In this document: positions 18,658-55,464 of the stretch, in pieces
Numbering within the stretch: the first letter of the stretch is position 1
Layout: every line of letters begins with the position of its first letter
Source: Halorarum halobium
Lineage (GTDB): Archaea; Halobacteriota; Halobacteria; Halobacteriales; Haloferacaceae
Direction: 5' to 3'
DNA: 64,000 nucleotides
NCBI RefSeq assembly: GCF_032116555.1
Contig: NZ_CP134949.1
Span: forward strand, 1,922,001-1,986,000
Made by a program: the position numbers and the translations under genes
The notes under the pieces: generated by a model
Databases searched by the model: none
What the model was told of the DNA's origin: nothing
What the model saw: only the letters and a program-made list of their open reading frames with translations

Positions 18658-18801
18658 CGTCCGACGGTAGCTCTCGTGGCCGGATATGCGTTCCGACACT
18701 CGTTCGGGGTGAACGGGTTTGCGATGGGTTGACGGTTCGAACGTCATGTGATGGGTCCGAAAACCCTCCAGGCCACGACGCTCCGTCAATTTGTTCGGGC
18801 G

Positions 18802-18921
18802 TCGACAGCCCCGCGGCTGTCGGCTCCGGGGCCCCGCTGCGCTCCTCGGCCTGCGGCCTGCGGTGCTCGTCCCTCGCACGCGTCCGCTCGCACTCCTCGG
18901 GGTTCACCGTCACGCGCGCCA
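18802..18921 (+). repeat. Short (internally deleted) copy of the intergenic hairpin-repeat family
   Basis: TCGACAGCCCCGCGG...CCGCTGCGCTCCTCG...GGCCTGCGGTGCTCGTCCCTCGCACG (identical string at ~55255-55280)...CGCGCGCCA. Confidence 0.8.
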
Positions 18922-19009
18922 CCTCGACCGGGTTCGACCGATCGGAGCCGACACACGGGGCATCGCCGTATCGGGGGGCTTTACCACCGACCGGCCGTAG
19001 CGGGCGGCG

Positions 19010-34757: not shown

Positions 34758-34841
34758 CGCGGGCGAATTTTCGTTTTCCGGGTTACGAGCTTCGGTTTGG
34801 TTGAGACGGTGCAACGTTACGGCCGCTGTTCAATCAGCGCC

Positions 34842-35196
34842 CTCGAAAGCCCCCTGCCGTGCATGGTTCAGTGGGCGGTGCTGGAGTCGCTGCGACTGCC
34901 TCGAAACCCCCCGCGGGGTTCGGCTCCCGCGAACCGCGATGCGCGCATCGGCTCACTACGTTCGCCTACGGTGCTTGCGGGTTCGGGGTTCGCCGAGCCC
35001 CGCGGCCCCTATCAGTCCCACCCAGACCGCACCGCACAGCCACACGCCTCCCTTACGTCGGAGCACGCTCCTCGGAACTCACCCTCGCTTCGCTCGCGTG
35101 AACAGCCGATTCGCTCGGTCGGCTCGCTCCGCTCGCCAGCTCTCACTCATCCCTCGCGCGATTCGGCCGCCCACGAGGGGCGGCCGCCGCGCGCCA
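34842..35196 (+). repeat. Full-length copy of the intergenic multi-hairpin repeat element
   Basis: Duplicated CTCGAAA(G/C)CCCC head, stem CGCGGGGTTCGGC...GCCGAGCCCCGCG, TCAGTCCCACCC, CCGCACAGC, TCGGAGCACGCTCCTCGGAACTCACCCTCG, TCCCTCGC, CGCGCGCCA; collinear with 54749-55313. Confidence 0.88.
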
Positions 35197-35221
35197 CTGC
35201 AACCGATCGGTCGAAGAAGCG

Positions 35222-37752: not shown

Positions 37753-37825
37753 AGTCCCGTGGTGTAGCGGCCAATCATAATGGCCTTTGGAGCCATTGAC
37801 GGCGGTTCGAATCCGCCCGGGACTA
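37753..37825 (+). tRNA. tRNA-Gln (anticodon TTG)
   Basis: Acceptor stem AGTCCCG/CGGGACT, anticodon arm ATGGC-CTTTGGA-GCCAT, T arm GGCGG-TTCGAAT-CCGCC; no encoded CCA, no intron. Confidence 0.96.
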
Positions 37826-54620: not shown

Positions 54621-54844
54621 GGATGCGAGTACGTGTTCATCACGCTTCAGCGTTTTCGCCGTGATTGGATTCAGGCGCCGGTGTAGGCTGTCGCTGTCGT
54701 CCTCACGGTAGTCGGGTTTCGTGTCCGTTCGGTCTCTGTGTCAATCGTCTCGAAAGCCCCCGCGGTTCTCGGCTTACGTGTTTGATCGCGGTCGGTTCGG
54801 CCACCTCGAAAGCCCCCGCGGCGCTCGACTCGGTGCGGCCGCTG

Positions 54845-54901
54845 TCGTTCGAAAATCGAAGAGTTTCGTGATGACGAAAGGCGCTCGCGCCTTTCGAACC
54901 A
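54845..54901 (+). mobile_element. 57-bp hairpin cassette (TCGTTCGAAA...TTTCGAACCA), putative tiny non-autonomous element
   Basis: Splits CCGCTG|CGCTCCTCG, which is intact at 18834-18848; an inverted relative lies at 55099-55214. Confidence 0.65.
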
Positions 54902-55098
54902 CGCTCCTCGTCACTCGGCTCGCTGCGCTCGCCTGCGGTGGTTGTCGGTCCGCGCCTGCGCCGACTTACGGGAGAGCACGCTCTCCTGAATTCACGGGCG
55001 CAAGCACCCGTGAACGCCGCGGCCCCTTTCAGTCCCACCCGCCGCACAGCACCTCACCCTCCCTTCCCTCGGAGCACGCTCCTCGGAACTCACCCTCG

Positions 55099-55214
55099 TG
55101 GTTCGAAAGACGCCAGGGCGTCTTTCGTCAGTACGGGAAACCGACGGTTCCCCGTCAGCGGTCGGATTCCGTCGGAATCCGACGGCATCACGAAACTCTT
55201 CGATTTTCGAACGA
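55099..55214 (-). mobile_element. 116-bp inverted copy of the same cassette with two extra hairpins
   Basis: The reverse complement matches both ends of 54845-54901; splits ACCCTCG|CTYCGCTCGCGTGA, which is intact at 35081-35101. Confidence 0.65.
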
Positions 55215-55464
55215 CTCCGCTCGCGTGAGCAGCCTCCTGCGCGTCTCGACCTCCGGCCTGCGGTGCTCGTCCCTCGCACGAGCGGCCGCGCTCCGCGCGA
55301 ACGTCGCGCGCCAGGTGGTTTAGTCGGGAAGAGGCGCGGGAATTCGGAGAGGTCAGGCCGGCGATTCGGATGGAAAGCCTCTGGCCGCCGTCCGGTGCAG
55401 GCGAGTGACCGCCACCGTTCCGGTACCCGGAGATACAAGCGTCCTGGCCGCCGTTCCTCGGAAC

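Follow-up and report, generated by a model that had tools for sequence, protein, structure and literature searches.

A double-hairpin cassette inserted precisely, in fixed orientation and without target duplication in haloarchaeal hairpin repeats, with joined ends complementary to its own linker

How does a non-coding DNA of some 57 nt, consisting of little more than two hairpins, come to lie twice and in opposite orientations within one intergenic repeat? The question arises at positions 54749..55320 (no strand assigned) of the window, the 64,000-nt stretch of the Halorarum halobium genome that we analysed. This composite, modular repeat has conserved outer motifs at 54749-54765, 54805-54821 and 55017-55040, is flanked by divergent genes (a 110-aa open-reading frame with no Pfam match and an S9 peptidase), and hosts both cassettes alongside a C-type two-hairpin module of the same composite repeat (54964..55015, no strand assigned). 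The short cassette (57 nt, 54845..54901, forward strand) runs from TC-GTT through a first hairpin (54850-54868), the linker TGATGA (54869-54874) and a second hairpin (54875-54896), all on the forward strand, to AAC-CA, and the target motif CGNNG, here CGCTG, remains 5' of it (54840..54844, forward strand). The long cassette (116 nt, 55099..55214, reverse strand) has the same scaffold and carries a nested 57-nt double-hairpin unit, module B (55131..55187, reverse strand), inserted at GA^TG of its linker, where the caret marks a junction; the boundary of module B is ambiguous by 2 nt, as 55129-55185 fits equally well. The target motif 5' of the long cassette is CGGAG, a C[GGA]G loop (55215..55219, reverse strand), and the host that it splits is module D (55064..55229, reverse strand), 50 nt when empty and itself a two-hairpin unit with clean junctions. 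The only Rfam match in the window is its one tRNA gene, at 37753-37825.

In cassette orientation the short cassette is bounded as CCGCTG^TCGTTC..AACCA^CGCTCC and the long one as GCGGAG^TCGTTC..AACCA^CGAGGG. Both have an empty sister site in the window: that of the short cassette (18834..18848, forward strand, junction 18839/18840) is an exact join, and that of the long cassette (35081..35101, reverse strand, junction 35087/35088) differs from the filled flank by one base, three bases from the junction. Coordinates, orientations and both empty sites agree with the original prediction of two cassettes placed in opposite orientations at clean G^C junctions. The long copy, which it had called an inverted relative, is one, and can be described more exactly as a copy of this cassette whose linker contains another double-hairpin unit, of 57 nt. 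The repeats of the host family examined in the window lie at 54749-55320, 18800-18930 and 34840-35200.

Copies elsewhere share an invariant scaffold, TC-GTT-[CG hairpin CG]-T-GATG-A-[CG hairpin CG]-AAC-CA, filled with variable hairpins. The 153 copies compared hold 99 and 106 different hairpin sequences in the two slots, stems are nearly all 6-13 bp, and the two slots and the two polarities have hairpin types in common, the loop polarities of hairpin pairs being RR 25, RY 26, YR 16 and YY 24. Triloops account for 337 of 357 loops, 113 of them C[GNA]G and 115 its complement, with no GNRA or UNCG loop; this points to folded DNA, not RNA, and GNA minihairpin loops are stable in DNA. The basic unit is 53-66 nt, long forms across the order measure 109-117 bp and carry 51-57-nt inserts, and the terminal inverted repeat has 11-nt arms that are 91% complementary when the target G and C are counted in. 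Each cassette half also closes on itself: past a 3x1 internal loop, the bases of which vary among subfamilies, two further pairs form.

The 3.68 Mb host genome (68% GC, 99.9% complete) contains 30 complete copies, every one within a repeat locus, and the exact scaffold pattern occurs in 176 of 301 genomes of the order, compared with none for a reversed-pattern control, so the cassette is not a product of chance. A wider cassette pattern was found in 44 of 54 genomes of the order versus 0 of 247 other genomes of the phylum. Scanning genomes of all species gave at least 120 matches, and among the 80 listed 78 carry halobacterial names and two the phylum name only; the named relatives with the same element are Halobacteria. 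The cassette had no match in 2.9 million viral contigs or in a phage collection, and none of the six matches in a metagenome scan had a real hairpin. Gene order around the orthologous locus is not conserved in either same-genus genome. No RNA run was listed, and four low-share DNA runs contained relatives only, with no piece crossing the locus; no circle or excision product was seen. One genus (g20) has the exact cassette pattern in 0 of 10 genomes, yet at least two of these have TnpA, making it a natural negative control.

The cassette is a precise, oriented insertion without duplication in many unrelated hosts. A target-site duplication is absent in 124 of 135 distinct sites, equal to the shuffled expectation (122), which bears out the predicted lack of duplication; the duplication that marks a DDE-driven MITE was not found. 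An exact 10+10-base empty join is present elsewhere in the genome for 16 of the 30 copies, rising to 22 of 30 if one mismatch is tolerated, and joins shifted by one base were found for 0 of 30 in the Halorarum halobium genome; the ends are thus not ragged. An unbiased indel scan of repeat loci returned the cassette as its top cluster (17 loci, 0-nt junction ambiguity), and most other indel clusters listed in that scan have direct repeats of 1-9 nt. When 226 sites were grouped into 68 flank clusters, 59 clusters had G^C and 36 had CGNNG^C, and 44 single-member clusters had base-exact cassette junctions. For a third subfamily, which has other loop bases, 19 of 20 sites show CGNN(G/A) before the cut, and the base after it is A or C; nested units enter the cassette linker at CGTGA^T. 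Together these place the target determinant only 5' of the cut. Flanks had been expected to read G^CG without duplication: the second half of that expectation held, and G^CG gave way to CGNNG 5' of the cut. Targets that form a perfect hairpin, a stem capped by C[GNN]G, number 7 of 68 clusters versus 1.8 in shuffled sequence, an enrichment that still leaves them in the minority, and module D has no CGNNG 5' of its insertion.

Hosts comprise REP-like repeats, end palindromes of IS200/IS605 elements, tRNA-like inverted repeats, and the coding sequences of tnpA and tnpB. Among sites in IS200/IS605 ends, which were called IS605 on the basis of adjacent tnpA/tnpB, 41 of 44 matches begin with TCGTT, i.e. 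lie in one orientation (overlapping loci counted twice). At the palindromes of one end the junction is base-exact, with 11 rows filled and 24 empty out of 35, a split that takes account of two mutated copies scored empty by the script and in which filled rows were selected for; the other end has 14 filled and 21 empty rows of 35, filled rows again being selected for. Five tRNA T-arm-like (by eye) inverted repeats serve as hosts (L034, L067, L129, L285 and L311), one 54-nt cassette lies in frame inside tnpA (L501:1462-1515) and another inside tnpB (L505:2163-2216). In IS200/IS605 tnpA genes (L124, L492-L497, L506 and L507) another double-hairpin family, 51 nt long, interrupts the PKYR motif between K and Y without a frameshift and adds 17 residues; its first hairpin swaps and flips between copies with the frame kept, and the same family also enters the cassette linker (L366 and L456).

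The composite host repeats themselves occupy about 194 loci and about 50 kb of the Halorarum halobium genome. They form a REP/BIME-like modular family with one strand rich in tandem G.A-compatible stems and GNA loops, and are slightly commoner between convergent (45/391) than co-directional genes (87/1303) by a crude gene call. The most frequent 16-mers of this genome belong to a 93-copy repeat that is probably a CRISPR array. The 30 copies of the cassette in this genome are limited to a few flank types between them and some of these flanks are chimeric, so most copies are not independent insertions, and whichever model applies, recombination has probably spread them secondarily. At C1:925134 and C1:579198 left and right flanks derive from different host modules, the cassette marking points of module shuffling.

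The ends of the cassette bear a relation to its centre. Joining the 3' end to the 5' end creates CATC, the complement of the linker core GATG. Among the rows listed by a search that left these positions free (80 distinct rows, two non-hairpin matches dropped, hand count), 72 of 78 real copies have a junction that is reverse-complementary to the core of their linker. A further search gave 27 of 29 copies (45 rows, 16 non-hairpin matches dropped). Five junction-linker combinations occur, CA^TC-GATG, GA^TC-GATC, CA^TG-CATG, GA^TG-CATC and CG^TG-CACG, the last in one copy only; this covariation appears, from the sequences compared, to rest on about three evolutionary events, and a head-to-head copy of the left half could yield the GATC form in a single step. 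Throughout the order a C.C mismatch persists in the terminal repeat of the commonest form, which pairing with the linker explains and plain inverted-repeat pairing does not. Because the joined ends are complementary to the linker, a nicked dumbbell is the fold predicted for an excised strand, and a T-shaped junction that for the integrated element. Of 222 real circles, 203 have both junction bases paired with the linker, versus 62 when shuffled. Folding energy does not separate the two, shuffled linkers being as stable as real ones (mean difference -0.12 kcal/mol), and the minimum-energy circle has all four expected pairs in 1 of 169 copies, one pair being shifted. In nested module B and in family E the closure on the linker is imperfect. 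The IS608 cross-pairing rule was considered and rejected, as it would give different targets to subfamilies with a common target.

We infer that the cassette moves as one strand; its fixed orientation and one-sided target fit a single-strand, strand-specific reaction, as far as sequence evidence goes. The reading that we favour, with a probability of roughly 0.55, is that the cassette is a non-autonomous, SMR-A-like element of Halobacteria, built from two extended hairpins that abut, and is mobilised by single-strand cutting and rejoining through a dumbbell circle by a putative trans-acting enzyme. This enzyme would cut the folded strand at both ends and join them; the product would be a closed dumbbell, with the linker GATG as splint across the new junction CA^TC, and the empty site would be restored. 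In the reverse reaction the circle would be joined, after CGNNG, into a target that is single-stranded and often a hairpin. Most copies in a genome would afterwards be carried along passively as recombination or gene conversion spreads their host repeats, processes that may also swap and flip hairpins. The chemistry could resemble IS200/IS605 peel-and-paste of the HUH type, an analogy to which we give somewhat less than even odds.

Copying without any dedicated enzyme would be another account: template switching or short-patch gene conversion between hairpin-rich loci, with CGNNG^C as microhomology in the donor flank. It would suit the copies in the genome that travel with their host flanks, some of them chimeric, the hairpins that flip and swap independently, and the enzyme searches of the genome, which gave no candidate. 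We nevertheless consider it unlikely, since unrelated hosts share only about three bases and the junctions are still base-exact with no flank carried over, exact junctions recur in IS200/IS605 ends, in tnpA/tnpB coding sequence and in the 44 single-member flank clusters, and indels of the copy-choice type in the same repeats have longer direct repeats. That a longer ancestral repeat lost sequence at the empty sites is barely credible: filled and empty forms do coexist, but the same cassette occupies many unrelated hosts and the IS200/IS605 ends of other genomes are commonly empty, both of which answer the proposal, anticipated in the original prediction, that the empty versions are deletions.

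A double-stranded route, in which a MITE or recombinase substrate with terminal inverted repeats of 8-11 bp is moved by a transposase that makes no duplication, or by an IS110 or tyrosine recombinase, would draw on the inverted repeat formed by the ends and extended by the target G and C, on nine tyrosine-recombinase matches in the genome and on a 2-nt TG repeat at module B. That TG repeat arises because module B starts with TG and enters GA^TG, and a unit starting with TC uses the same spot. Orientation is fixed on an asymmetric target, element ends and target have no common core, the genome has no IS110 transposase, and the inner hairpins remain perfect while their sequence changes, all of which make this route improbable. 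Still less probable is an RNA-level element (a hammerhead-like three-way junction, bulge-helix-bulge intron or C/D-box-like RNA) reinserted via reverse transcription. The linker GUGAUGA does resemble the hammerhead core or box C when compared with their consensus, and relatives of the cassette lie in frame within tnpA and tnpB; by eye, however, the hammerhead C3 and one A of GAAA are absent relative to the consensus, the GATC and CATG subfamilies break the motif, and no bulge-helix-bulge forms with the flanks. Moreover the loops are DNA-type, the tRNA is the window's sole Rfam match, the genome has no reverse transcriptase, and one locus holds both orientations. Hammerhead, box C/D, bulge-helix-bulge and integron attC structures were each tried as candidates and rejected by eye against their consensus.

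For the single-strand, dumbbell-circle reading an enzyme was sought in several ways. The 99.9% complete genome contains no Y1_Tnp (PF01797), no REP-associated tyrosine transposase (NF047646), no IS110 transposase (PF02371) and no reverse transcriptase (RVT_1), and a six-frame search with a profile of 25 haloarchaeal TnpA stretches found no TnpA remnant in it; Y2_Tnp had no match in this genome, and its control likewise matched nowhere. The genome has one TnpB without TnpA, and tyrosine-recombinase profiles matched nine times. Across 121 genomes TnpA is present in 56 of 89 cassette carriers versus 18 of 32 non-carriers (Fisher p 0.53; counted by hand, with kin treated as independent). At 103 loci TnpB is the only adjoining open-reading frame product to recur across genomes, because IS ends are targets. 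Gene-bearing versions of the cassette were sought among 30 + 30 listed loci and 20 stretches, which held only 51-57-nt nested units or composites, and the 13 genes with repeats on both sides carry no HUH motif. Divergent TnpA matches, considered as a candidate enzyme, were ordinary IS genes split by a double-hairpin insert. The original prediction of a minimal HUH-mobilised element that targets another repeat stands as to a mobile unit with strand-specific orientation and a preference for hairpin repeats, and is still hypothetical as to HUH/Y1 mobilisation, there being no Y1_Tnp, RAYT or TnpA remnant in the genome; the TnpA/RAYT-like gene that it expected between cassette hairpins was looked for and none was found. 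That copies concentrate in the ends and genes of IS200/IS605 elements could reflect a role for TnpA or just a need for single-stranded targets, and TnpA may conceivably have been supplied to the genome in the past; we consider IS200/IS605 TnpA itself a doubtful candidate for the enzyme. A broader and tentative proposal, possible though clearly short of even odds, is a class of mobile DNAs, about 55 nt long and found across the order, that would excise as self-splinted, covalently closed single-stranded dumbbells, would be served by a host or mobile enzyme that is neither IS200/IS605 TnpA nor RAYT, and would nest mutually, build a REP-like landscape and parasitise IS200/IS605 ends and transposase genes.

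Literature searches with four cassette hairpin motifs returned 0 papers, the available portions of PMC7002104, PMC13107129 and PMC4478555 hold nothing on the cassette family, and no description of the scaffold, target motif or order-wide spread was found in the literature searched, most subscription papers lying outside it. The scaffold, one-sided motif and end-linker pairing make SMR-type mobility testable, with a 57-mer substrate, a predicted dumbbell and compensatory mutants. If the favoured reading is true, the cassette would be among the smallest mobile DNAs known, accepting nested cargo in its linker, would point to a further single-strand recombinase in haloarchaea, and would bear on the restraint of IS200/IS605 elements and their TnpB guide-RNA ends.

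Several known systems resemble the cassette in part. The mitochondrial double-hairpin elements of Allomyces (Paquin et al. 2000) are reportedly tiny, non-coding, mobile two-hairpin units whose enzyme is not known; they belong to a eukaryotic organelle, and the likeness is by analogy only. REP, BIME and REPIN sequences with their RAYT likewise form modular hairpin repeats at hundreds of intergenic loci, and the cut site in TnpA and TnpA-REP systems is chosen, in the available part of PMC8266576, by pairing with a tetranucleotide 5' of the hairpin, another point of likeness. In contrast, the cassette has no fixed GTAG tag, its cuts are not C^T, it is a two-hairpin unit with defined ends, and its genome has no RAYT, whether bordered by these repeats or elsewhere. 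IS200/IS605 elements and PATEs (TnpA, Y1 HUH) resemble it in making no duplication, in strand polarity and in a one-sided determinant 5' of the cut; in IS200/IS605 as in the cassette, cut sites are apparently set by DNA-DNA pairing, with a circular single-strand intermediate that for the cassette is proposed. Unlike in IS200/IS605, the hairpin sequence is free to vary, the target is GC-rich and degenerate, the ends pair directly with the inner linker, TnpA does not co-occur, and IS200/IS605 elements are its victims. PATEs have IS200/IS605-homologous ends without inverted repeats and TnpA in trans; the cassette ends are inverted, by inspection its hairpins differ from the IS end palindromes that it enters, and the Halorarum halobium genome has no TnpA. 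In genome G322, where cassette copies at IS605 ends measure 53-66 nt, there is also an unrelated abundant repeat of 110-130 bp; it ends in inverted repeats, occurs as many as 11 times within 400 kb and was seen inside no PATE.

The closest match is SMR-A of Haloquadratum walsbyi (HqIRS42, HqIRS43 and HqIRS55), described in 2011 in PMC3119063, a precedent that the original prediction did not mention; the available part of that paper calls its mobilisation enigmatic, proposes it as a defence, and gives a length of about 110 bp with inverted ends, no duplication and a location within near-terminal palindromes of IS605-type elements and PATEs. As far as that part goes, the two share terminal inverted repeats, absence of target duplication and of coding capacity, and insertion in IS605/PATE palindromes, and the length of about 110 bp compares with 109-117 bp for the long cassette forms and 53-66 nt for the basic unit; the cassette family also lies at IS605-end palindromes in the Haloquadratum walsbyi J07HQW1 record. 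The same part of PMC3119063 does not mention scaffold, target motif, end-linker pairing or nesting, the end-linker pairing appearing as a new structural rule, and compared with SMR-A as described there the cassette spans the whole order and also targets REP-like repeats and coding sequence. Likened by described features and not by sequence, the cassette is best regarded as working like SMR-A and probably belongs to it.
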